Shown: positions 5,811 through 51,732 of the stretch, piece by piece | Position numbering within the stretch: position 1 is the first letter of the stretch | How the letters are laid out: the number at the start of each line of letters is the position of its first letter | From: Escherichia phage EPIMRB01 | Sequence record: PQ657784 | Direction: 5' to 3' (one strand) | DNA length: 64,000 bases | Made by a program: the position numbers and the translations under genes | Notes under the pieces: model-generated | Seen by the model: only the letters and a program-made list of their open reading frames with translations | What the model was told of the DNA's origin: nothing | Database searches by the model: none

Positions 5811-6080
5811 TTAATTAAACAGTGGAGCGATACGTTTCAGAAGAGTAGCAGCACCTTTGGCGAATTTTACATCATGAAAAACAGTTTCTTCTTCCGTTAC
5901 AACACGAGCTTTAATGTTTTCACAATCCCAATTTTTACGAACAATCTTCAAAAGCTGCAGTAAATCTTTACATTCAGCAATATCGATAACACATCCACGA
6001 GAATCTTCCATTATCGCACGATAACCGTAAGCCATACCATAATCGTTGAAAGATTGCTCGATGATAATTAAGTTTTCCAT
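5811..6080 (-). CDS. hypothetical protein
   Basis: ATG at 6080 preceded by GGAGAATAAA leader shared with other cassette genes; track start at 6092 is TTG. Confidence 0.5.
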   Translation of the reverse strand: MENLIIIEQSFNDYGMAYGYRAIMEDSRGCVIDIAECKDLLQLLKIVRKNWDCENIKARVVTEEETVFHDVKFAKGAATLLKRIAPLFN

Positions 6081-6177
6081 TTTATTCTCCAAGTTATTTT
6101 CTGTATCAGTAGTTGATATTGATATAGTACCATAATCAACTACTGATGTATATAGTTTTATGAAAAAATTTTAAACT

Positions 6178-6675
6178 TTATGCATAGCGAGCTTTGCTAT
6201 AGTGTTTAATCCAACTTTCAGGAATGACTTTGTATGTTCCTAAAAATACCGCGTTGTACAGCTTAACACCGTCTTCTACCCACTGATCGGTAATGTATGC
6301 ACACATAGCACGAGTACGATGTTTTTGAACAACCCCTTCCTCATCTTCAGTAAATTCGAATTCATAAGGAGCAACGAACTTGATAGCTTGACCGAGTTTC
6401 CACTTAAAGTCTACACCTACATGCGAAGTATCAATCGTTTCAATTCCTTTAGCGGGAACAGCTTTCAAAAACGCAGGCTCAAGAAATTTCCATCGAACAT
6501 AACCAAACTGAGGTTTAGACATTCCATCTTTAGGAATGATACGCACTTTTACTTCAGAATCTTCATCTTTAACACCATGTTTAAGCTGAATGCTTACGAC
6601 TTCAACCAATTTTCCTGCTGCTTTAGAACGGGATTTATCAGATACACGAGCAATTTCACCGATATTAATATTCAT
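6178..6675 (-). CDS. MotB-like protein
   Basis: 165-aa ORF in the cef-motB-dexA interval; C-terminal motif TDQWVEDGVKLYNAV shared with next ORF. Confidence 0.5.
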   Translation of the reverse strand: MNINIGEIARVSDKSRSKAAGKLVEVVSIQLKHGVKDEDSEVKVRIIPKDGMSKPQFGYVRWKFLEPAFLKAVPAKGIETIDTSHVGVDFKWKLGQAIKFVAPYEFEFTEDEEGVVQKHRTRAMCAYITDQWVEDGVKLYNAVFLGTYKVIPESWIKHYSKARYA

Positions 6676-6748
6676 AATTATCTCTCACTTGTTAAAAAGA
6701 TTTTATACTCCGCAGGACCATTATACTCTGGTCCCAAGAGTTTGTAAA

Positions 6749-7249
6749 CTAGCTTACACGAACATTAATCACTGCGCTGCGAGGAACTACAGAGTACTCT
6801 CCAGCATGAACTACATTAAGAAGTTCAACGCCATCTTCAATCCACTGGTCAGTTACCCAACCGCCAATCGGATTCGCGAATGGACGACGAATATAAACTG
6901 CCTTACACAACAAATCAGTCGGGTCTTCAATTTTTTCAACTGGTGTTACATACATAGAAACTAAATCCATATCAATATGGGATTTTTCTTGTTCTTCTTT
7001 TTCAATTTCTGTCAATAAATTGAAATCTTCTTCATAGATGATGAATGATGATACCCTTCCATAATAGTTTCTAATTTCCATGTACACTGTACCAATGAGA
7101 ATTCCGCTATTAACACTAATAATAGTAAAAGGATATCCGCCAGTTGTACCAAGAAGTTCCCAAAACTTGCTATCAGTCGTATTCGACATTGTCCGGAAAT
7201 CAATTTCAGATGGTTTTTTCATTTGATACGTAGTATTAATTTTAATCAT
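6749..7249 (-). CDS. MotB-like paralog
   Basis: 166-aa ORF; C-terminal TDQWIEDGVELLNVV motif homologous to 6178-6675. Confidence 0.5.
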   Translation of the reverse strand: MIKINTTYQMKKPSEIDFRTMSNTTDSKFWELLGTTGGYPFTIISVNSGILIGTVYMEIRNYYGRVSSFIIYEEDFNLLTEIEKEEQEKSHIDMDLVSMYVTPVEKIEDPTDLLCKAVYIRRPFANPIGGWVTDQWIEDGVELLNVVHAGEYSVVPRSAVINVRVS

Positions 7250-22333: not shown

Positions 22334-23182
22334 TTAATCAACTGCTATTGGATGAATAGCATTAAACTTATGAAATGCTTCTGATTTTTCTTTACGAGAA
22401 ACACACATGCGAAGAACCTTTAATGGCTCGTCTTCTTCACCCAACGATTTTCGTTTTTCAATATTAGAAGTTTTCCAACGAGCTTGCTCTGGAAACTCTC
22501 TATTGATTTGCTCAAGCGCTCTATTATGTTTAGAATTACTACGAATTGAACTGCACCCGCCAGGAGCTTGTGCTTTTCCAGATACAACCAGATATTTGAA
22601 CAAGGCCAAATGCGGATAACCTTGATTAATTAAATTGAGAAATGCATACATATCTTCACATAAATCAATTTTTCCATACCCAATTTGTTCTGTCGTAAGT
22701 TTTCCGAGGTCATACCATGTATTCGTGAATCCATATGAATTTTCACGATAATTACCCCAAGATGAAGTAATTTTAAAAATAGGTAGACGAGCATGGCCAT
22801 GATAATACCCACAATCCATGGCATCCTCAACATATTGAATCAATTCATAGAACTGTTCACGGGTTAATTGATTGACTTTATCTACACAACGACGGTCATC
22901 TCTTTTTCGCATTGAACTCATACGAATAGTAGTATCATCGTCAATCATCCAGATTCGTTGACCTGTATACATATCAGTAATTGCTTTACGAGTACCGGCA
23001 ATTCCGTTTACATCATCAGGAATAGTTATAATTTTAGCTCTAGACCCATAGGCATCATAATAAGCTTTTTCTTCGTGTTCACGTACTACAATATGTGGTT
23101 CATAATCAGTCGGAAACATATCAAGGACAGAAACTGCCCCTACACGTTGATAGCTTGGAATTACGAATTGAATCATTTCCAC
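22334..23182 (-). CDS. putative beta-glucosyl-HMC-alpha-glucosyltransferase
   Basis: 282-aa ORF in the uvsX-42 slot where T4 has the 351-aa beta-gt; no resemblance to T4 beta-gt; assignment by T2/T6 synteny from memory. Confidence 0.5.
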   Translation of the reverse strand: MEMIQFVIPSYQRVGAVSVLDMFPTDYEPHIVVREHEEKAYYDAYGSRAKIITIPDDVNGIAGTRKAITDMYTGQRIWMIDDDTTIRMSSMRKRDDRRCVDKVNQLTREQFYELIQYVEDAMDCGYYHGHARLPIFKITSSWGNYRENSYGFTNTWYDLGKLTTEQIGYGKIDLCEDMYAFLNLINQGYPHLALFKYLVVSGKAQAPGGCSSIRSNSKHNRALEQINREFPEQARWKTSNIEKRKSLGEEDEPLKVLRMCVSRKEKSEAFHKFNAIHPIAVD

Positions 23183-23913
23183 TCACCTTTATAGTCTTTT
23201 TTCACAATATGAGTTTCGCCAGTATTCCACCAATGATCAACCAAGTAAAAATGACGAGAATATACATGAAGACTTCCAACATTCCATATAATAGAACCTG
23301 CTTTATACTGACGAGTTGAATCGCCTGCATTCAAATCAGATACTAATTTATCTAATACGTATTTTTGCCATGCATAATCATTACGGAATCCGAAGACCAC
23401 GTCATTTGAGCGCATGCTTACTACTGCATTGACTTTCTTATCACGAATCAGGTACTGTACTGTATTAGTACACATGAAATCTGACATACCATCTTTATTG
23501 TAGTCAAATTGCATGGATGGACGAGTATAAATCATGATACCACGCCGAGAATCAGGATTTTGACCAAGTTCAGCTAAACACATATCATACTGGGCATAGT
23601 TATCTTCTGACCAGATGGCCCAACCATAATTCGAGTTAATTTCGCCCTTAGAAGATGCTACCTGCTGCCAAATCTTCGGTGTTTCACCCGGAATATCTTT
23701 AACAAACAAACTTTTAGATTTATACCATTCAAGTTCACGTTGAATGTATTCATCATTAAGAGCGCCAAAAATAAACGGTTCATCTGCTACAAATGATGCA
23801 CCAATAATTTCAATAGTTTTAACACCAGTTTTATCAACTACGAAATCTTTTTCTTTTAATGCAAGCCCCAAATGAAGACGGATTTCTTCAACTGTCATAG
23901 AGTCACTAATCAT
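23173..23913 (-). CDS. 42: dCMP hydroxymethylase gp42
   Basis: 246 aa as T4 gp42; thymidylate-synthase-like fold. Confidence 0.95.
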   Translation of the reverse strand: MISDSMTVEEIRLHLGLALKEKDFVVDKTGVKTIEIIGASFVADEPFIFGALNDEYIQRELEWYKSKSLFVKDIPGETPKIWQQVASSKGEINSNYGWAIWSEDNYAQYDMCLAELGQNPDSRRGIMIYTRPSMQFDYNKDGMSDFMCTNTVQYLIRDKKVNAVVSMRSNDVVFGFRNDYAWQKYVLDKLVSDLNAGDSTRQYKAGSIIWNVGSLHVYSRHFYLVDHWWNTGETHIVKKDYKGEWK

Positions 23914-23920
23914 TTAAACC

Positions 23921-24070
23921 TCAATTGATACATTCATATTTAACTTGTAACAGTAATAAACCCCAACCTAAAATAATAGTTGGAATCATAAGAGGAACCG
24001 TTACGCTATAGTATATACTTATTATAATCATCAAGATTAAAAGCAACACTGCTATAATTTTGCTTTTCAT
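23921..24070 (-). CDS. imm.1-like small membrane protein
   Basis: 49-aa hydrophobic ORF read by hand; ATGA overlap with imm stop. Confidence 0.45.
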   Translation of the reverse strand: MKSKIIAVLLLILMIIISIYYSVTVPLMIPTIILGWGLLLLQVKYECIN

Positions 24071-24318
24071 TCCTTCTCTCTGATGATAATTACTTGATTT
24101 GGCTGTGCAGACTTTTTGGTTTCACCCGCAATTGACCAAATAAATGTAATAAACCAACCAATAATTGACCAGTTAAACAGTAAAGACGTGAAAAAGATTC
24201 CTACTGTCGATTTTGACCCACGCATCAAGGCGATGAACCATGGAAGCATGTATATAATAATAGCCAACACGCCTGAAACTAAAACCATAAAAATTGAACC
24301 TGCTACTAAAGTTTCCAT
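24067..24318 (-). CDS. imm: superinfection immunity protein Imm
   Basis: 83 aa, two TM segments; size and position as T4 Imm. Confidence 0.85.
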   Translation of the reverse strand: METLVAGSIFMVLVSGVLAIIIYMLPWFIALMRGSKSTVGIFFTSLLFNWSIIGWFITFIWSIAGETKKSAQPNQVIIIREKE

Positions 24319-24325
24319 GTTTTCC

Positions 24326-24706
24326 TCACTTAGTCAAATTTTTTACACATGAATTATAAGAATTCACTACATACTCCATTGGAGCATTTTTACCAGTACG
24401 CCATTGGTAATTATTAGCCCAATTTGCCCAAAGTTCAGCGCAGTAGTTTTCAATTTTTTCTTCGCGTGTAATTACATCCGAATTACGATATGCTTGAGCA
24501 GATTCATCTGGACGAATAGCTTCGTCAAAATTCGCCTGCATTTGTTCTACTGTCTGTTTTGGAGCTTCTTTATAACACTTGACGTTAGGATTATAAAATT
24601 TGCTTGAACAGTTTACAATTTTTCCTACATCAGACTGATTTACTACCGGTCCTTGAGCTACACAACCAGTAAGACCTAATGCAATAACCAAAATAGCAAT
24701 TTTCAT
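24326..24706 (-). CDS. lipoprotein (LTGC lipobox)
   Basis: 126-aa ORF with signal peptide and lipobox, Cys-containing mature part; lies between imm and gene 43. Confidence 0.55.
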   Translation of the reverse strand: MKIAILVIALGLTGCVAQGPVVNQSDVGKIVNCSSKFYNPNVKCYKEAPKQTVEQMQANFDEAIRPDESAQAYRNSDVITREEKIENYCAELWANWANNYQWRTGKNAPMEYVVNSYNSCVKNLTK

Positions 24707-24716
24707 AATAATTTCC

Positions 24717-24953
24717 TCAAATACAAGTAGTAATTACTCCAGTAGTGCTTACACAGGTATTACCTAATTGAACACCCAGCGTTCCATTAGTATTCATATG
24801 AAGATTATCACCAATTTTTGTTGATACTTTACCATTCATGTGAATAACAGTATTAGATTCAATCACATTCTGAGTGTCATTTTCAATATCAATAAATGGA
24901 ACAGCTGCTAATGCAACTAAACACACTGCTAAGCAACCATAAACAATTTTCAT
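24717..24953 (-). CDS. small secreted/membrane protein
   Basis: 78 aa from ATG at 24953 behind the GGAGAATAAA leader; signal-peptide-like N-terminus; track ORF extension runs through the promoter. Confidence 0.5.
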   Translation of the reverse strand: MKIVYGCLAVCLVALAAVPFIDIENDTQNVIESNTVIHMNGKVSTKIGDNLHMNTNGTLGVQLGNTCVSTTGVITTCI

Positions 24954-24997
24954 TTTATTCTCCAAATCCGTATCAGTTGATAGTTGTATAGTACCAT
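24947..24997. repeat. 51-bp promoter-leader cassette repeat, copy 1
   Basis: identical to 51632-51682; includes -10, leader, SD, ATG and second codon. Confidence 0.8.
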
Positions 24998-25017
24998 GGA
25001 AGAACAGGGATGTAAAC
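24988..25017 (-). promoter_or_regulatory. early promoter of cassette type (GTTTAC-N18-TACTAT)
   Basis: followed by leader CAACTATCAACTGATACGGATTTGGAGAATAAA ATG. Confidence 0.55.
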
Positions 25018-25100
25018 AGTTTTGTGAAAAAATTTTTAATGAATTTACAGGATCTAGAATCATCTATTTTTCCTAAGTATAGATTTATATTACTTGTATG

Positions 25101-25122
25101 AAAAAGGGACCCGGAGGTCCCT
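25101..25122 (-). terminator. rho-independent terminator downstream of gene 43
   Basis: AGGGACC-UCCG-GGUCCCU then UUUUUC. Confidence 0.6.
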
Positions 25123-25134
25123 AGATTTATTCTA

Positions 25135-27831
25135 TCAGCCAAACAGGAAGTCTAACGAAGCTTTTTCTTCATAGTCCATACCAGCCGATTCACACATGCC
25201 TGCAAGCGGTTTAACAAACGATTTTTGGAACAAAGTTGAGTAGTCAATCCAAGACAGTACGTCAGAACGAATTTCTTTTGGAAGTTCTGTACCCGATGGC
25301 CAAGCAATGCATTTGTCACCAAATGGATTTCCTTCACGCAATGGAAGAACCATTACTTTATTTCCATCCAAAATTGGAGCTACACCCAGACCACTAACAG
25401 CTCGACGATAAGTTAGCACACCACGAATATGGAACGGACATTTAAATCCTGGCCAACCTTTATCATCATATTTCGCTATATCGTTCGCAGTTTTTACTTC
25501 AGCAATAACTTTATAGTCAAGTTGACGATATTCTTTCTCGAAGTTCTTGTAATATTCTTGGACAGACTCTTCACCTTCCTGAAGAATACGACGAATACTT
25601 TCTTCGAGAGCTTCTTGCACTGCTTTTGGTGTTGAACTCTGCTGAGTTTCCATACCCATGATTTTTAGATGCGGTTCAGCAAATCGTTTATCTTCCATAT
25701 CATAAACGTTCAGAGCATAACGCTTTTTCGCTTTCCAAAATCCACCAACGCCCTTTGAACCAAGTGGAGGGCAAGAAATAGCTTCACGGTCCATATGCAT
25801 CAGATGCTCGCGGTTATTCATATAATCACATAACTCACGATATGCAACATCAATCATAGGTTCCATCTTTTTCTTACCGAACTGATTCATGAATTCAACT
25901 AAATCGTTCTGCTCTTTGAATCGGTCAAGACCAACTTTTTCAATAACTTTATCTACACAAACATATACCGAATCAGTATCACCTGCTGCAATGAAATCTT
26001 CATCGTTAGTTCCGCATACTTTATTCAGATATTCATTAATTTTACGAGCAATCCACTGAATACCAACTTGGCCGAAAATTGTGATAGCAGTAGCATTTCG
26101 CAAATCATAGTAACGGAAATGAATATTACCAAGAGCACCATAAAGACTGTTAATAAGAATTTTACGGTTCAGTTGATTTGTGTTAGCAAGTGTAGCTGCT
26201 TTTTCACATTCTTCAATCAGACTATTGAGAACGGATTCGGTGTAATTCGATAGTTCATTTAAGAAATCATCACTGAACTTAACATATCGTTCAACTTCAG
26301 GTTTAGTTGAACAAGACCCTGCGCCTTTCATAATAATCTTTTTAATAGCTTCGGCATTCATTTCTTCAGCGAACATTTTCTTTTTCCAGTCTTTACGCTG
26401 GAAAAATACTTTAGCGATTTCCTTTGGAATGATACCTTCTTGATGCTTATCATACATCCATCCATTCGGAGAACAAGAATATTCATCACTCGGTTTAGGA
26501 GCTGTTCCTGCGATATATTCATGAATTGGATGAACTTTAAACTGACCACGAATAGTCTCAGGACTAATGTTAACCTGACGAATAATGCTCGGATACAGAG
26601 ACGTCAAGTCAAAACTCATAATATATCGACGAGCAATTGGTTTAGGTTCAAACACAAATGCACCCGGAAAACTCTGTTTAACGTGCGAACCTTGTTGAGG
26701 AATAACCTTATGTTCACCTTTCAATGAGTTAAAAATAATAGCATCCCAGGTTTTAATAGGACTCATTACACCAGAAAAAGGCATTTTAGCGTAATAAGAC
26801 ATACTTAAAACTAGATCGATAAACCCGCGAATTTTATCAATTGCTTGAACTGATTCTACGTCAATGATGTTATAACTAATGTATCGTTGATGATTAGTCT
26901 CACGAAGTTTATTAATAGGACCGTCGTATGGTAATTTACCTTTTTTGGTTTCATGTTGAGCAACTGATTCCAAAGAGAATGACGGCAAATTAGTAAAAGC
27001 AAATTTCTTGTACAAATCTAAATAATCAAGAATAGATACACCATCAATAGAATAAATTTCTTTGCTGCCGTACATGTTTTGAATTAGTTTAGATTTTACT
27101 CGACCAATTGGAGAGAAGCGTTTCATACTACGTTCACCGAGAACCATTTTAACGCGATTCATGATATACGGAACGTCAAATCCCTCAATATTCCAACCAG
27201 TAAAAATAGCAGGTCGTTTCTGTTCCCAGAGATTGATATATTCCATGAGCATATCACGCTCATTATCGAATGGCATATAAATTACTCGGTCAAGAATTTC
27301 TTGAGGAACTTCATCACCACCTTCACAGTCAAGCTTAGCAGCTAACTTTGCATCCCATTTTGATACTGAACCATACATTGAATTCAAAAGGTCGAAAACA
27401 TAAAAACGATCATCAATTGAATCGTAATGAGTGATAGCATCAATTTCATATTCAGCTTTCATTGGGTCAGGAAATTTATCACCAGTAACCTCAATGTCAC
27501 AGTTAGCTACACGAACAAATTTTCGGTCATAAACAATTTCTGAACCATATGTATCACTGATATAAGCGAGTTTAAAATCGTTCATACCGAGAGCTTCGAG
27601 ACCGATGTCTTCCATTCGTTTCATCCAATCTCGAGCATCTTTCATTGATGGAAATTTTTGAGGAGCGCAATTTTTACCATAAATGTCTTTGTACTTTGAC
27701 TCTTCCTTACAATGCCTAAACATAGTCGGAAGATATTCTACTTCACGAGTACGTTCCTTTCCGTTTTCATCAATATAACGTTCAACAATGTTATTTCCGA
27801 CTGTTTCAATAGAGATATAAAATTCTTTCAT
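25135..27831 (-). CDS. 43: DNA polymerase gp43 (family B)
   Basis: 898 aa as T4 gp43; exonuclease and polymerase motifs; operator hairpin upstream. Confidence 0.97.
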   Translation of the reverse strand: MKEFYISIETVGNNIVERYIDENGKERTREVEYLPTMFRHCKEESKYKDIYGKNCAPQKFPSMKDARDWMKRMEDIGLEALGMNDFKLAYISDTYGSEIVYDRKFVRVANCDIEVTGDKFPDPMKAEYEIDAITHYDSIDDRFYVFDLLNSMYGSVSKWDAKLAAKLDCEGGDEVPQEILDRVIYMPFDNERDMLMEYINLWEQKRPAIFTGWNIEGFDVPYIMNRVKMVLGERSMKRFSPIGRVKSKLIQNMYGSKEIYSIDGVSILDYLDLYKKFAFTNLPSFSLESVAQHETKKGKLPYDGPINKLRETNHQRYISYNIIDVESVQAIDKIRGFIDLVLSMSYYAKMPFSGVMSPIKTWDAIIFNSLKGEHKVIPQQGSHVKQSFPGAFVFEPKPIARRYIMSFDLTSLYPSIIRQVNISPETIRGQFKVHPIHEYIAGTAPKPSDEYSCSPNGWMYDKHQEGIIPKEIAKVFFQRKDWKKKMFAEEMNAEAIKKIIMKGAGSCSTKPEVERYVKFSDDFLNELSNYTESVLNSLIEECEKAATLANTNQLNRKILINSLYGALGNIHFRYYDLRNATAITIFGQVGIQWIARKINEYLNKVCGTNDEDFIAAGDTDSVYVCVDKVIEKVGLDRFKEQNDLVEFMNQFGKKKMEPMIDVAYRELCDYMNNREHLMHMDREAISCPPLGSKGVGGFWKAKKRYALNVYDMEDKRFAEPHLKIMGMETQQSSTPKAVQEALEESIRRILQEGEESVQEYYKNFEKEYRQLDYKVIAEVKTANDIAKYDDKGWPGFKCPFHIRGVLTYRRAVSGLGVAPILDGNKVMVLPLREGNPFGDKCIAWPSGTELPKEIRSDVLSWIDYSTLFQKSFVKPLAGMCESAGMDYEEKASLDFLFG

Positions 27832-27913: not shown

Positions 27914-28150
27914 TTAAATTTCTATTGTATGACGCGATATAACGGACTTGCCATCTTTATTTGTGGTTTTGATAATCGCATGAAATGCGCGTTGGCGTGG
28001 GTAAACTAATCGTTGGAATTCTTTTTGGAATTCTATTTGTTTATCTTCAGGGAGGTCAAAAACCAGTTGGGTAGAAGACAGACCATATGTTTGTTTTAGA
28101 TTTTCGAATATTAGAAAAGCTTCGGTAAACTGAATCTCTGATTGTGTCAT
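27914..28150 (-). CDS. hypothetical protein between regA and gene 43
   Basis: 78 aa from ATG at 28150 with AAGG SD overlapping regA stop; terminator hairpin just downstream. Confidence 0.45.
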   Translation of the reverse strand: MTQSEIQFTEAFLIFENLKQTYGLSSTQLVFDLPEDKQIEFQKEFQRLVYPRQRAFHAIIKTTNKDGKSVISRHTIEI

Positions 28151-49677: not shown

Positions 49678-50205
49678 TTATGCGAGTACCGTCTTTAACC
49701 GTTCTTCAAATTTCCGAAGAGTGTTCTGGCGTTCAGCTCTTTGCTTTTTGTAAGTTTCAATACGCTCTGAAATGAGAGTGTATCGTTCATTTACTGATTC
49801 TTTCATAAAATCAGGAATTTCACGAGAAGCTTTAATTTCATCAAATTTATCAATAACAGCTTGCTCTTCAGCAATTAAGTTATCATACATCAAAATATCT
49901 TTCTTGATGAACTCAATATCTTCTTGAGTTACACGAGATAATTTAGATGCTTTATCCTTTTTGTACTGTTCGTTAGTATCACGAGACCAGTGTAATGTAC
50001 GATTTTTATTCGTATTCTTATAAATTTCTACAATACCAATCTCATCAATAATAACGATCCAATTCCAACGGGATTTGTAAATTTGTCCTCCATCAACCGC
50101 GATTTCACCACCGATTGAGACATCATTAAAGAACTTGCTTTGAGCTTCAGATTTAAATTTACCATCATTGTAGTTTACTAAGTTGAAAATATCTTTAGCA
50201 TTCAT
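49678..50205 (-). CDS. hypothetical protein
   Basis: 175 aa from ATG at 50205 with GGAGG SD behind cassette promoter. Confidence 0.5.
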   Translation of the reverse strand: MNAKDIFNLVNYNDGKFKSEAQSKFFNDVSIGGEIAVDGGQIYKSRWNWIVIIDEIGIVEIYKNTNKNRTLHWSRDTNEQYKKDKASKLSRVTQEDIEFIKKDILMYDNLIAEEQAVIDKFDEIKASREIPDFMKESVNERYTLISERIETYKKQRAERQNTLRKFEERLKTVLA

Positions 50206-50233
50206 TTTCTGTTCCTCCGTAGTTGATAGTTGT

Positions 50234-50263
50234 ATAGTATCACAGAGGAACAGTCTTGTAAAC
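50234..50263 (-). promoter_or_regulatory. early promoter of cassette type
   Basis: GTTTAC-N18-TACTAT then ACAACTATCAACT leader and GGAGG SD. Confidence 0.55.
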
Positions 50264-50265
50264 AA

Positions 50266-50669: not shown

Positions 50670-51638
50670 TTATTTCAGAAGAGTAACCTCAGCGATTTCT
50701 TCCCAACCGTTTTTGTCGGTCATAATAAAGTCAGCAAGATAAAGAGCAGTACGCAGTGAAACATTGCGTAAACGATTAACATTGACTTTCATCCATGATA
50801 ATGCTTTATAAGTTTCTTCATCAGAAAGACCGCGCTTTTGCATCATGTCAGTTGAAAGAATAACATCTTCAACCCTGACCATAATTTCTTCATTAGTGTG
50901 AACACCTAAATCTAAATAAACTGAGCGGGACACTAATGCTTGTAAATGTGGAGCAAGTTTAGTACCACGGTCTAATTCGCGGTCAATGTCAACGTTTGTG
51001 ATAAAAACAATCGTTCCTTTAAATTCAAACTCACGCTCAATGCCTTTTTCTTCTAAGTAAGAAGATGCAGTGCTCCAGCAGACTTTACGGGTCTCTCCAG
51101 TGTCCAGAGCAGCTTTCAGAAGATTAAGAATGTCCATATCAGAGAAAACATCCACATCATCAATCAAAAGGACAGAATTCTCTTCACGATTATTCCAAAG
51201 CTGCTCATAAAGACCAATACCAGAGATTTTACCGTTAATGCTTTTATACTCAATGTATCCAATATCATTTGCTTTATTTAAAGCTTTATCTAAAGAATAC
51301 GTTTTACCAATACCTGCTGCACCAGAGATAATTAATGAACGAATGTTTCCGTTAATAATACCATTCGTCATCATTCCCATAACATTAAATCTTTTATTAA
51401 TGCGGGTTTTCATATCTTCATATGATTCTTTAACTTCTTCAACTTTTACACCGTCATATGAAATGTCTGATTTGTAAACCCAAACACCGCGACGTTTACC
51501 GTCAATTTCAACAAAAACTTTACCATCTCCTTGTGCATCTACCGGAGCATTATCAGGGAACCACTCACCTAAGAGTTCAAAAGTTCCAGAGATTTCTTTG
51601 CCAAAGTAGATACCCTTATTGATAGTTACAGTTTTCAT
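50670..51638 (-). CDS. predicted AAA+ / P-loop ATPase
   Basis: 322 aa from ATG at 51638; Walker A SGAAGIGKT and Walker B VLLIDDVD; own early promoter and cassette leader. Confidence 0.6.
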   Translation of the reverse strand: MKTVTINKGIYFGKEISGTFELLGEWFPDNAPVDAQGDGKVFVEIDGKRRGVWVYKSDISYDGVKVEEVKESYEDMKTRINKRFNVMGMMTNGIINGNIRSLIISGAAGIGKTYSLDKALNKANDIGYIEYKSINGKISGIGLYEQLWNNREENSVLLIDDVDVFSDMDILNLLKAALDTGETRKVCWSTASSYLEEKGIEREFEFKGTIVFITNVDIDRELDRGTKLAPHLQALVSRSVYLDLGVHTNEEIMVRVEDVILSTDMMQKRGLSDEETYKALSWMKVNVNRLRNVSLRTALYLADFIMTDKNGWEEIAEVTLLK

Positions 51639-51682
51639 TTTATTCTCCAAATCCGTATCAGTTGATAGTTGTATAGTACCAT
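51632..51682. repeat. 51-bp promoter-leader cassette repeat, copy 2
   Basis: identical to 24947-24997. Confidence 0.8.
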
Positions 51683-51702
51683 AAAGCTTTATGCTTGTAA
51701 AC
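51673..51702 (-). promoter_or_regulatory. early promoter of cassette type upstream of ATPase gene
   Basis: GTTTAC-N18-TACTAT; leader identical over 51 nt to copy at 24947-24997. Confidence 0.55.
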
Positions 51703-51732
51703 CGTTCTGTGAAAAATTTTTGAAATAAAAAA

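Follow-up and report, generated by a model that had tools for sequence, protein, structure and literature searches.

Two small genes lie between imm and gene 43 in the stretch of Escherichia phage EPIMRB01 DNA that we analysed (sequence record PQ657784; 64,000 nucleotides, here called the window), and the locus they form is with high probability an ordinary early unit of the T-even phages, made up of an orthologue of T4 imm.1 and an optional ORFan, orf78, in a slot that takes three states. The whole window is matched at 100% by AUBRB02, an Escherichia phage of the genus Tequatrovirus, in whose annotation the 126-aa and 78-aa ORFs both appear as hypothetical proteins. Both ORFs are present on the minus strand between imm and gene 43, as the preliminary description had reported. 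The upstream neighbour of the gene string is gene 43 (DNA polymerase, 25135-27831), and the string itself, all on the minus strand, consists of orf78 (24717-24953, 78 aa; ORF list and match to phrog_4189), imm.1 (24326-24706, 126 aa; Pfam DUF5481, phrog_1754 and alignment with T4), imm (24067-24318, the superinfection immunity protein of 83 aa with two hydrophobic segments; PF14373, phrog_1039 and T4 annotation) and orf49 (23921-24070, 49 aa, also with two hydrophobic segments; ORF list and phrog_3610). The start of orf49 overlaps the imm stop codon (ATGA); the gene is intact in T4 but unannotated in NC_000866, is annotated in AR1 and RB27, and is conserved in a metagenomic contig (L011). By rule-based sequence analysis all four small products are envelope-directed. 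Paralogues of orf78, Imm.1 and orf49 were not found elsewhere within the window. A longer frame of 141 aa starting at TTG (24717-25142) was rejected because it runs through the terminator and the promoter described below.

Alignment of the locus with T4 (NC_000866) gives about 97% nucleotide identity, interrupted by a single gap of 247 bp that corresponds to orf78. The preliminary description held that imm directly adjoins gene 43 in T4 and counted both genes of the window as extra. The premise is wrong. In T4 the interval between imm and 43 is occupied by imm.1 (125 aa), which is an orthologue of the lipoprotein gene at the same position, and only the 78-aa ORF is an addition relative to T4. 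As judged from the sequence, the 126-aa lipoprotein is the orthologue of T4 Imm.1 (T4p046, NP_049661, UniProt P18057), with which it shares about 99% protein identity, the position of the lipobox and four further cysteines. It matches PF17578 (DUF5481) with 239.2 bits against a cut-off of 27, over profile positions 1-103 of 103, and phrog_1754 with E = 5e-44, and in both phages the gene directly precedes imm and follows gene 43. The two differ in the lipobox, which reads LTGC in the window and LAGC in T4, in one additional C-terminal Lys of the window protein, and in their leaders, as the window gene has its own Shine-Dalgarno sequence after orf78 whereas T4 imm.1 is fused straight onto the promoter cassette.

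The numbers of matching phage records, the dN/dS ratios and the presence of a Shine-Dalgarno sequence before each indicate that the two ORFs are real genes and not chance frames. The 126-aa protein matches 656 phage records and the 78-aa protein 325. For imm.1, dN/dS is 0.02-0.05 and the Shine-Dalgarno sequence is GAGG at 24715-24718, overlapping the orf78 stop codon; for orf78, dN/dS is 0.3-0.6, with dN about 40 times that of imm.1, and the Shine-Dalgarno sequence is GGAG at 24960-24963. About 320 genomes carry an unbroken orf78 frame, with 60-100% identity, and the nucleotide identity of orf78 is 84-89% compared with 96-99% in the flanking genes. By these comparisons orf78 is a real, fast-evolving yet constrained gene.

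The LTGC lipobox noted earlier on the 126-aa protein holds up, since the N-terminus MKIAILVIALGLTGC fits [LVI][ASTVI][GAS]C with Cys15 as the predicted lipidated residue. Lipoproteins were recognized by a positive n-region and a hydrophobic core followed by this motif, its Cys no further in than about residue 35; the 126-aa protein has all of these features of an SPII sequence. The LTGC lipobox is kept in the Mosigvirus orthologue at only about 33% protein identity, while one metagenomic variant (P0020) has LAGF and lacks the lipidated Cys. Mature Imm.1 contains Cys33, Cys44, Cys89 and Cys120, and its C-terminal part is predicted to be helical. The AlphaFold2 model is poor, with a mean pLDDT of 55.7 and about 78 over residues 81-126; word-indexed homologue searches yielded very few clusters and hence a shallow alignment for structure prediction. 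Imm.1 would be exported and then lipid-modified at Cys15, and Lol sorting would take it to the inner face of the outer membrane because the +2 residue is Val, not Asp. It could then consist of a flexible N-terminal tether bearing a disulfide-stapled helical domain in the periplasm, a picture that the poor model makes tentative. In T4, imm.1 is classed as early at both the RNA and the protein level (PMC9697503 supplement) and is listed as function unknown, with a knockdown scored as "Not Fit", that is, no laboratory fitness effect (PMC11879866 supplement). Our literature search found no paper on imm.1 function or DUF5481, and a PDB sequence search with Imm.1 and orf78 returned no match for either.

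Transcription signals stand at the head of the string. Just past the gene 43 stop lies an intrinsic terminator, AGGGACCTCCGGGTCCCT then TTTTTCAT (25105-25122, minus strand), which is nearly identical in T4, and after it an early-promoter cassette (24943-25039, minus strand) composed of an A/T-rich upstream region, the promoter, a conserved leader, the Shine-Dalgarno sequence GGAG and ATGAAAA. The promoter is TTTACA-17-TACTAT with an extended TG at 25016-24988, its -35 element at 25016-25011 and its -10 element at 24993-24988. The 78-aa ORF had been credited with a cassette promoter of its own, a view we do not share, as the same early promoter stands before imm.1 in T4 and the cassette is repeated in the window at 51628-51724 (84.5%), 6074-6175 and 50201-50264. 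No convincing promoter was seen downstream of the one at 25016-24988, from which we infer that it heads the whole string. The order we propose is the gene 43 terminator, the early-promoter cassette, then orf78, imm.1, imm and orf49, and finally gene 42; a single early promoter would drive the four small genes and perhaps gene 42.

The arrangement resembles the promoter-early stem-loop (PeSL) cassettes, which mediate ORFan shuffling in T4-type phages and for which the borders of gene 43 are known sites (Arbiol et al. 2010, PMC2839356; Comeau et al. 2014, PMC4122927). In both, a terminator stem-loop and a sigma-70-type early promoter directly precede an ORFan, here the terminator at 25122-25105 and the promoter; the cassette is repeated in the genome, with the further copies starting at 51628, 6074 and 50201; and close relatives have the ORFan, lack it or carry a different ORF in its place. 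The likeness is confined to the left boundary of the slot. Downstream of orf78 there is no second PeSL but only the imm.1 Shine-Dalgarno sequence and start codon, and on that side the slot is bounded by a short SD-ATGAAAAT microhomology to imm.1.

Comparison of related sequences places orf78 as an optional ORFan in a slot between the cassette and imm.1 that holds orf78, an unrelated ORF, or nothing. Contiguity of orf78 with imm.1 was found in 318 Tequatrovirus records. In T4, T6, RB3 and RB55 the slot is empty and the site spans only about 562 bp, whereas in T2, RB27 and RB51 it holds, at the same junctions, an unrelated 83-aa ORF (phrog_18567) with no signal peptide. The number of empty loci, about 150, is a subtraction of 318 and 31 from about 501 Tequatrovirus-type loci. 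The earlier question of whether relatives carry both genes at this locus has a divided answer: imm.1 is there, in T4 too, whereas orf78 is there in about 318 genomes and missing from T4 and T6. A direct repeat marks the two edges of the indel. Its left copy (20 nt, 24944-24963) covers the Shine-Dalgarno sequence and ATGAAAATTG of orf78 and its right copy (24697-24716) covers the Shine-Dalgarno sequence and ATGAAAATTG of imm.1; the copies share 80% identity and an exact 10-nt core CAATTTTCAT, are spaced by 247 nt, and bracket the 247-bp indel relative to T4. The right junction of the repeat also occurs in RB27, and a similar one follows the orf78 homologue of dhabil. In dhabil and dhaeg this homologue maps to another part of the genome, on the upstream side of nudE/e/denV. 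An early-promoter cassette precedes it there as well, and the junction after it, TGAGGAAAATATTATG, closely resembles TGAGGAAATTATTATG of the window. Slot contents could have been exchanged by recombination, on the left through the repeated promoter/SD cassette and on the right through the SD-ATGAAAAT microhomology.

A rule-based scan for a tripartite signal peptide, with small residues at -3 and -1 and Pro barred from +1, agrees with the signal-peptide-like N-terminus attributed to the 78-aa protein; it found K2, a 15-residue hydrophobic core (3-17) and -3/-1 sites ALA and LAA, with candidate cleavage after residue 16 (ALA, then A) or 17 (LAA, then V); an uncleaved anchor is also compatible with the scan. 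The signal-like residues 1-17 are kept across the whole 78-aa family, as the lipobox is in the T4 and Mosigvirus orthologues of Imm.1, and the envelope targeting proposed for both proteins stands on these rules. The mature part of about 60 aa contains Cys67 and Cys77 and is modelled by AlphaFold2 as six beta-strands with pLDDT 87-90. Even the most divergent alleles, those of the dhabil type, strongly conserve its C-terminal motif LGVQxGN..STTG..TC. An exhaustive profile search yielded only 2 representative clusters among 1.84 billion proteins, and neither relatives outside the T-even phages nor any structural or family match was found. Most likely, then, the orf78 product is a Sec-exported, cleaved, beta-rich periplasmic protein of about 60 aa that would be dispensable for growth. 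Its assignment as a lipoprotein in EPIMRB01 was rejected, because the protein lacks a canonical lipobox and its N-terminal cysteines are replaced in divergent alleles.

Other readings of orf78 fit parts of these observations. The protein could be tethered to the membrane by an uncleaved N-terminal signal anchor, or be a lipoprotein in some alleles, which we consider rather unlikely. There is a single positive charge in the n-region, and a long hydrophobic core follows, of 15 residues here and about 22 in the alleles with 7-aa duplications within the core (P0004, P0008 and P0010); moreover, the 85-aa allele P0004 has LAAC, which fits a lipobox, and is named "Lipoprotein" by one source. In the window allele, however, LAVC has Val at -1 and VYGC is too near the N-terminus. 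The divergent alleles P0013-P0015 (P0014 being the dhabil protein) have Val and Ser in place of Cys7 and Cys11 with hydrophobicity retained, so that neither Cys is a conserved lipidation site, whereas the family as a whole retains an AxA-type cleavage motif with VPF after it. It is improbable, too, that orf78 is a functionless passenger moved about by cassette recombination. That it is optional within the genus and missing from T4 and T6, that its family is so small, and that it lacks structural and family matches would all suit a passenger, but an intact frame in so many genomes, dN/dS below 1, the conservation of the C-terminal motif in the most divergent alleles and a good Shine-Dalgarno sequence behind a strong early promoter speak for a gene under constraint.

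The preliminary description suggested that both genes are additions relative to T4 beside imm and serve as extra superinfection-exclusion or host-envelope factors. The envelope direction of all four small products agrees with this, as does the adjacency of imm.1 and imm in three contexts, in one of which, Mosigvirus, the pair also adjoins spackle. We nevertheless give the proposal little probability, as T4 itself has imm.1, T4 and T6 have nothing in the orf78 slot and T2 and RB27 a signal-less ORF, the dhabil/dhaeg homologue of orf78 lies far from imm, and neither protein is similar to Imm, to Sp or to any family of defence or exclusion proteins. Pfam and PHROG scans and the PDB sequence search showed no similarity of orf78 or Imm.1 to Imm (PF14373) or Sp; the only Pfam and PHROG assignments are DUF5481/phrog_1754 for Imm.1 and phrog_4189 for orf78. 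Searches with the PADLOC defence-system models gave only noise (E 0.002 to 0.04, 12-15 bits), as did the NCBIfam models against the locus proteins. The reading to which we commit for orf78 is a periplasmic accessory factor that differs between strains and would act in envelope conflicts among phages or between phage and host, with no mechanistic tie to Imm. Against a dedicated link between orf78 and imm stand the empty or otherwise filled slot in the phages named above (RB51 included) and the different place of the homologue in dhabil and dhaeg, and a role specifically in exclusion is unlikely.

The situation of imm.1 is different. Its conserved position next to imm in three genomic contexts supports an association of the two genes; these contexts are 43-(slot)-imm.1-imm-orf49-42 in Tequatrovirus, dmd-imm.1-imm-sp in Mosigvirus, where spackle directly follows the pair, and frd.3-imm.1-imm-orf49 in metagenomic contig L011. 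The association is not universal, as homologues of Imm occur in 1001 phage records compared with 656 with DUF5481, leaving about 345 without detectable DUF5481. Lu and Henning are said to have found in 1989 that plasmid-borne imm alone gives exclusion, and if so Imm.1 cannot be strictly required. An envelope role of Imm.1 exerted together with Imm is possible, and we propose it only tentatively. A review states that Imm needs a second membrane protein for full superinfection exclusion (PMC9952470, citing Lu, Stierhof and Henning 1993).

Similar lipoproteins are found beside gene 43 or imm in other genera. Those of the VR20, JS98 and AnYang type are 166-167 aa long, and related ones occur in Klebsiella phage Roth66, in Kanagawavirus IME523 and PEi20 and in Winklervirus CBH8; in Gaprivervirus, Dhakavirus and the Klebsiella phages they adjoin imm. 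Like Imm.1, members of this group have the lipobox at residues 15-17 and a distal pair of cysteines, the last of them close to the C-terminus, and are encoded immediately downstream of gene 43 and/or adjoining imm. A mature N-terminal motif, QG-x-V-V-N-x-S-x-V-G-K, stands out best in Tequatrovirus Imm.1, VR20, IME523 and Roth66, whereas the other members have a degenerate form of it or none. Unlike Imm.1, the group members are longer, differ in proximal Cys spacing and show other gene orders with respect to imm, which is non-adjacent in Kanagawavirus and Winklervirus CBH8. Scored against a profile of the group, mature Imm.1 sequences rank in the top 0.06-1.5% of their own shuffles, with collinear alignments. 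The Pfam DUF5481 profile does not detect the group, and hhalign of the mature Imm.1 family against the VR20-type sequences is not significant (P 0.03, probability 1.6%). Homology between Imm.1 and the VR20-type lipoproteins is probable on the resemblance of the sequences. The further proposition that Imm.1 and the similarly built lipoproteins of other Tevenvirinae form one wide family and constitute the missing "second membrane protein" for Imm is considerably more doubtful. It draws on the three-context adjacency, on the imm-adjacent lipoproteins elsewhere and on the weak collinear profile similarity. If it were correct, outer-membrane-anchored Imm.1 in the periplasm would help to place or complete the block that inner-membrane Imm imposes on DNA entry.

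Both products can be compared with known phage proteins of the envelope. T5 Llp and the Cor proteins of phi80 and N15 are small early outer-membrane lipoproteins that block the receptor and so keep out superinfecting phage. Imm.1 is likewise small, early and predicted to be an outer-membrane lipoprotein; no search showed sequence similarity to Llp or Cor, and the receptors of T-even phages (OmpC, LPS, Tsx, FadL and others) differ from FhuA. The structure of Spackle (Sp, gp61.3) is helical, whereas orf78 is modelled as all-beta, and no sequence similarity between the two was found. In size Sp is close to orf78: it is a small protein, made early in T-even phages as a 97-aa precursor with a signal peptide, and acts in the periplasm (PMC7677548). 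Sp inhibits the gp5 lysozyme.

Neither gene is new. Both are annotated in hundreds of deposited T-even genomes, and imm.1 has been named in T4 for decades, so that the locus carries little weight as a discovery. The clean three-state slot behind a repeated early-promoter cassette shows how T-even phages swap small accessory genes. A partnership of Imm.1 with Imm is conceivable, given the adjacency of their genes in three contexts and the similar lipoproteins encoded next to gene 43 or imm in other genera. A lipoprotein gene that appears to accompany imm through several genera and gene orders would make Imm.1 a sensible first candidate for that role.

All genes of the locus lie on the minus strand of the window, and ORF calling places them, in transcription order, as the DNA polymerase gene 43 (25135–27831), a 78-aa ORF (orf78, 24717–24953), a 126-aa ORF (24326–24706), imm (24067–24318), a 49-aa ORF (orf49, 23921–24070), gene 42 (23173–23913), a 282-aa glucosyltransferase-like gene and uvsX. 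The preliminary description had placed the 126-aa and 78-aa ORFs correctly and interpreted both as envelope-targeted genes additional to T4, possibly serving in superinfection exclusion or as host-envelope factors. The observation is borne out in part, and the interpretation likewise has partial support; the locus was known and annotated before, with the functions of both genes recorded as unknown. Escherichia phage AUBRB02 (OY979771), where both ORFs are annotated as hypothetical proteins, matches the window at 100% across the 809 bp queried, and about 500 further Tequatrovirus records match the same query at 90–98%.

The 126-aa lipoprotein gene is almost certainly the orthologue of T4 imm.1. 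Starting at the end of gene 43 and reaching into gene 42, the window and T4 are collinear at ~97% identity with a single 247-bp gap, and the T4 reference genome carries imm.1 (T4p046, NP_049661, 125 aa) annotated between imm and 43, so the gene cannot be counted as extra relative to T4: its orthologue occupies the same position there. The 126-aa protein differs from T4 Imm.1 by one lipobox residue (LTGC vs LAGC) and one added C-terminal Lys, and it matches Pfam DUF5481 (239 bits, cut-off 27) and phrog_1754. Supplementary data of T4 studies list imm.1 as an early RNA and early protein in time-resolved omics (PMC9697503, supplementary files 4 and 6) and as a gene of unknown function, "Not Fit" in a genome-wide knockdown, that is, without laboratory fitness cost (PMC11879866, supplementary files 8 and 15). 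A literature search found no paper on imm.1 function. Names in the databases vary: RefSeq T4 (6637–7014 of our comparison sequence L001) calls imm.1 "iduronate sulfatase", a case of annotation drift, and in many GenBank phage records the orthologue is entered as "immunity" or "immunity protein", a name apparently taken over from the neighbouring imm.

The gene 43 stop codon is followed by an intrinsic terminator (25122–25105) and then by a sigma-70-type promoter with extended TG (TTTACA-17-TACTAT, 25016–24988). T4 has nearly identical copies of both, directly preceding imm.1, and the promoter is therefore not orf78's own, as had been proposed. The term "cassette" is apt, as the unit of promoter, leader, Shine-Dalgarno (SD) sequence and first ORF bases (24943–25039) recurs three more times in a repeat comparison within the window, at 51628–51724 (84.5% identical), 6074–6175 and 50201–50264; the copies are 75–85% identical and each stands directly before an ATG. 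Arbiol et al. described promoter-early stem-loop (PeSL) elements, which shuffle ORFans in T4-type phages and border gene 43 (PMC2839356). The repeated cassette fits this idea, although at orf78 such an element is present only on the left side.

The 247-bp stretch that forms the gap in T4 consists of precisely orf78 and 10 bases carrying the imm.1 SD sequence, which confirms that the 78-aa gene is missing from T4; of the two genes described as additional, it is the only one that is. A 20-nt direct repeat (24944–24963 and 24697–24716; 80% identical, 10-nt exact core, spacing 247 nt) flanks the gap, and both copies contain an SD sequence followed by ATGAAAATTG because orf78 and imm.1 both start with MKI. 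By tblastn, orf78 is found in 325 phage records, and a search for relatives with both genes at this locus found promoter, orf78 and imm.1 as a contiguous block in 318. With Tequatrovirus-type imm.1 defined by at least 95% identity (~501 records), ~63% of such loci carry orf78.

The slot between the promoter cassette and imm.1 very probably has three states, as read from a spread listing of megablast matches. The majority state is orf78. In T4, T6, RB3, RB55, ECML-134 and others the slot is empty (span ~562 bp), and subtraction suggests about 150 empty loci. RB27, UFV13 and TadeuszReichstein have another insert of similar length. In RB27 (694–945 of L012) it encodes an 83-aa ORF (MKNIQTNFIQNLKVVNAEK..., phrog_18567) with left and right junctions as for orf78; this ORF lacks a signal peptide and does not resemble orf78. 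The phrog_18567 ORF also fills the slot in T2, RB51 and RB68, and in 31 Tequatrovirus-type records in all; homologues ~50–54% identical are located elsewhere in Dhakavirus and dhabil-like genomes. Phages dhabil and dhaeg, in turn, carry a 76-aa orf78 homologue (62% identical) in another region, upstream of Y06M, NUDIX, lysozyme and denV genes, preceded by an early-promoter-like cassette ending in GGAGAATAAAATGAAA and followed by a junction, TGAGGAAAATATTATG, that closely resembles TGAGGAAATTATTATG in the window. Thus, the behaviour of orf78 is that of a movable accessory module, whose place beside imm is not kept outside Tequatrovirus.

Between regA and gene 43, another 78-aa ORF (27914–28150, minus strand; MTQSEIQFTEAF..., phrog_3826, function unknown) is followed by a terminator-like hairpin, where T4 shows only a 78-bp gap; gene 43 is flanked here by a second polymorphic slot. 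The 282-aa protein between 42 and uvsX (22334–23182, minus strand) matches the beta-glucosyl-HMC-alpha-glucosyltransferase family (phrog_842; Pfam TAGT), and T4 has beta-gt and segA at that position. We take the gene to be of the T2/T6 type, and the phage DNA is therefore probably modified as in T2 and T6, not T4. The orf49 product has two hydrophobic segments and belongs to phrog_3610, and its reading frame overlaps the stop codon of imm (ATGA). T4 has the gene intact, with just four base changes, yet it lacks annotation in NC_000866; AR1 and RB27 (as "42.1") do have it annotated, and it is kept after imm in a divergent metagenomic contig (L011). Its product is probably a genuine membrane mini-protein of the imm string that has been overlooked.

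Both genes are real, and rule-based analysis bears out the envelope signals noted in their predicted products, a lipobox and a signal-like N-terminus. Compared with three other alleles, orf78 shows 84–89% nucleotide identity against 96–99% in the flanking genes, with dN/dS of 0.31–0.59 and dN of 0.10–0.13, compared to 0.02–0.05 and ~0.003 in imm.1 and imm; orf78 is thus under constraint, but its protein evolves at about 40 times the rate of the neighbouring ones. In the N-terminal stretch, MKIVYGCLAVCLVALAA-VPF, a hydrophobic core of 15 residues is accompanied by two candidate cleavage sites (ALA|A and LAA|V), and we consider export likely. The N-terminal Cys residues were ruled out as lipidation sites, as the divergent alleles P0013–P0015 (58–62% identical) have Val for Cys7 and Ser for Cys11 while remaining hydrophobic in this part and keeping the LVALAA-VPF motif. 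Alleles P0004, P0008 and P0010 contain tandem 7-aa (21-nt) duplications inside the hydrophobic core, by which an 85-aa allele, named "Lipoprotein" by one source, gained a lipobox-like LAAC motif. Six short beta-strands are predicted for the mature part (pLDDT 87–90). The family shares a C-terminal motif, LGVQxGN..STTG..TC, with Cys77 invariant and Cys67 nearly so (Tyr in two alleles). Only two clusters were returned when 1.84 billion representative proteins were searched exhaustively with a profile; orf78 represents an ORFan family restricted to T-even-type phages.

In Imm.1 the N-terminus, MKIAILVIALGLTGC, carries a single basic residue and a hydrophobic core, and Cys15 belongs to a canonical lipobox. 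The Mosigvirus orthologue, MKKLIALAMVFGLTGC, keeps the lipobox at only ~33% overall identity, which argues for a real lipidation signal. A metagenomic variant (P0020) reads LAGF followed by AHA-S and looks like a plain secreted version. Under the E. coli Lol sorting rule, Asp at +2 keeps a lipoprotein in the inner membrane; with Val at +2, Imm.1 should be destined for the outer membrane.

A slot that is empty or filled by an unrelated ORF without a signal peptide, together with the dhabil and dhaeg homologue elsewhere, speaks against a dedicated functional link between orf78 and imm, and we regard orf78 as quite unlikely to be an exclusion factor. The imm.1-imm pair, in comparison, is kept in three surroundings: 43-(slot)-imm.1-imm-orf49-42 in Tequatrovirus, dmd-imm.1-imm-sp in Mosigvirus PhAPEC2, where it directly adjoins sp, the other known exclusion gene, and frd.3, an imm.1-like gene, imm and orf49 in contig L011. 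The evidence thus points toward imm.1 belonging with imm; that Imm.1 acts with Imm is a possibility we rate as less likely than not. Imm is said to need a second membrane protein for full exclusion (review PMC9952470, citing Lu, Stierhof and Henning 1993). Imm.1 is an obvious candidate for this putative partner, and it cannot be strictly required. Contig L011 (718–1490) itself has a mosaic make-up: when the two sequences are compared by eye, the Imm and 49-aa proteins closely resemble those of the window, and its imm.1-like product is only 44% identical, without the lipidated Cys, its N-terminal two-thirds aligning best with the Tequatrovirus type and its full-length matches being Mosigvirus-type records.

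Imm homologues are more widespread, occurring in 1001 records compared to 656 with DUF5481. In several genera without DUF5481 a different lipoprotein adjoins gene 43 or imm. Gaprivervirus VR20 and Dhakavirus AnYang and JS98 have 43, imm and then a 166–167-aa lipoprotein (lipobox LSGC), with one additional small ORF in between in JS98; Klebsiella phage Roth66 has 43, a 147-aa lipoprotein (LTGC), imm and 42; and in Kanagawavirus IME523 and PEi20 and Winklervirus CBH8 a lipoprotein of the same family directly follows gene 43, with no adjacent imm. Across these four genera and a Klebsiella phage the family (137–175 aa) comprises 127 phage records, right after gene 43 and/or beside imm (L013 1892–2395, L015 1879–2379, L019 901–1401, L014 1026–1469, L016 895–1422, L017 898–1311 and L018 901–1410 in our comparison sequences). 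A Pfam search of its members did not detect DUF5481. The family resembles Imm.1 in where the lipobox lies, in a motif just behind the lipidated Cys (VAQGPVVNQSDVGK for Imm.1, AYQGDVVNASEIGK for VR20, QMPQGPIYNASEVGK for IME523, QMPQGDIVPASSVGQ for Roth66) and in a distal pair of Cys residues, the last of them near the C-terminus. Statistically, support for a relationship is mixed. Single BLASTP comparisons with the signal peptide included gave E values of 5e-7 and 2e-5; hhalign of mature sequences was not significant (P 0.03). With an HMM of the VR20 group and Roth66, just 3, 9, 60 and 75 of 5000 shuffles reached the real scores of four mature Imm.1 sequences, and the alignments are collinear, motif on motif and Cys on Cys. 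Remote homology between Imm.1 and the VR20/Roth66-type lipoproteins is probable by these comparisons. The association of imm with a lipoprotein is the only lead here worth experimental work.
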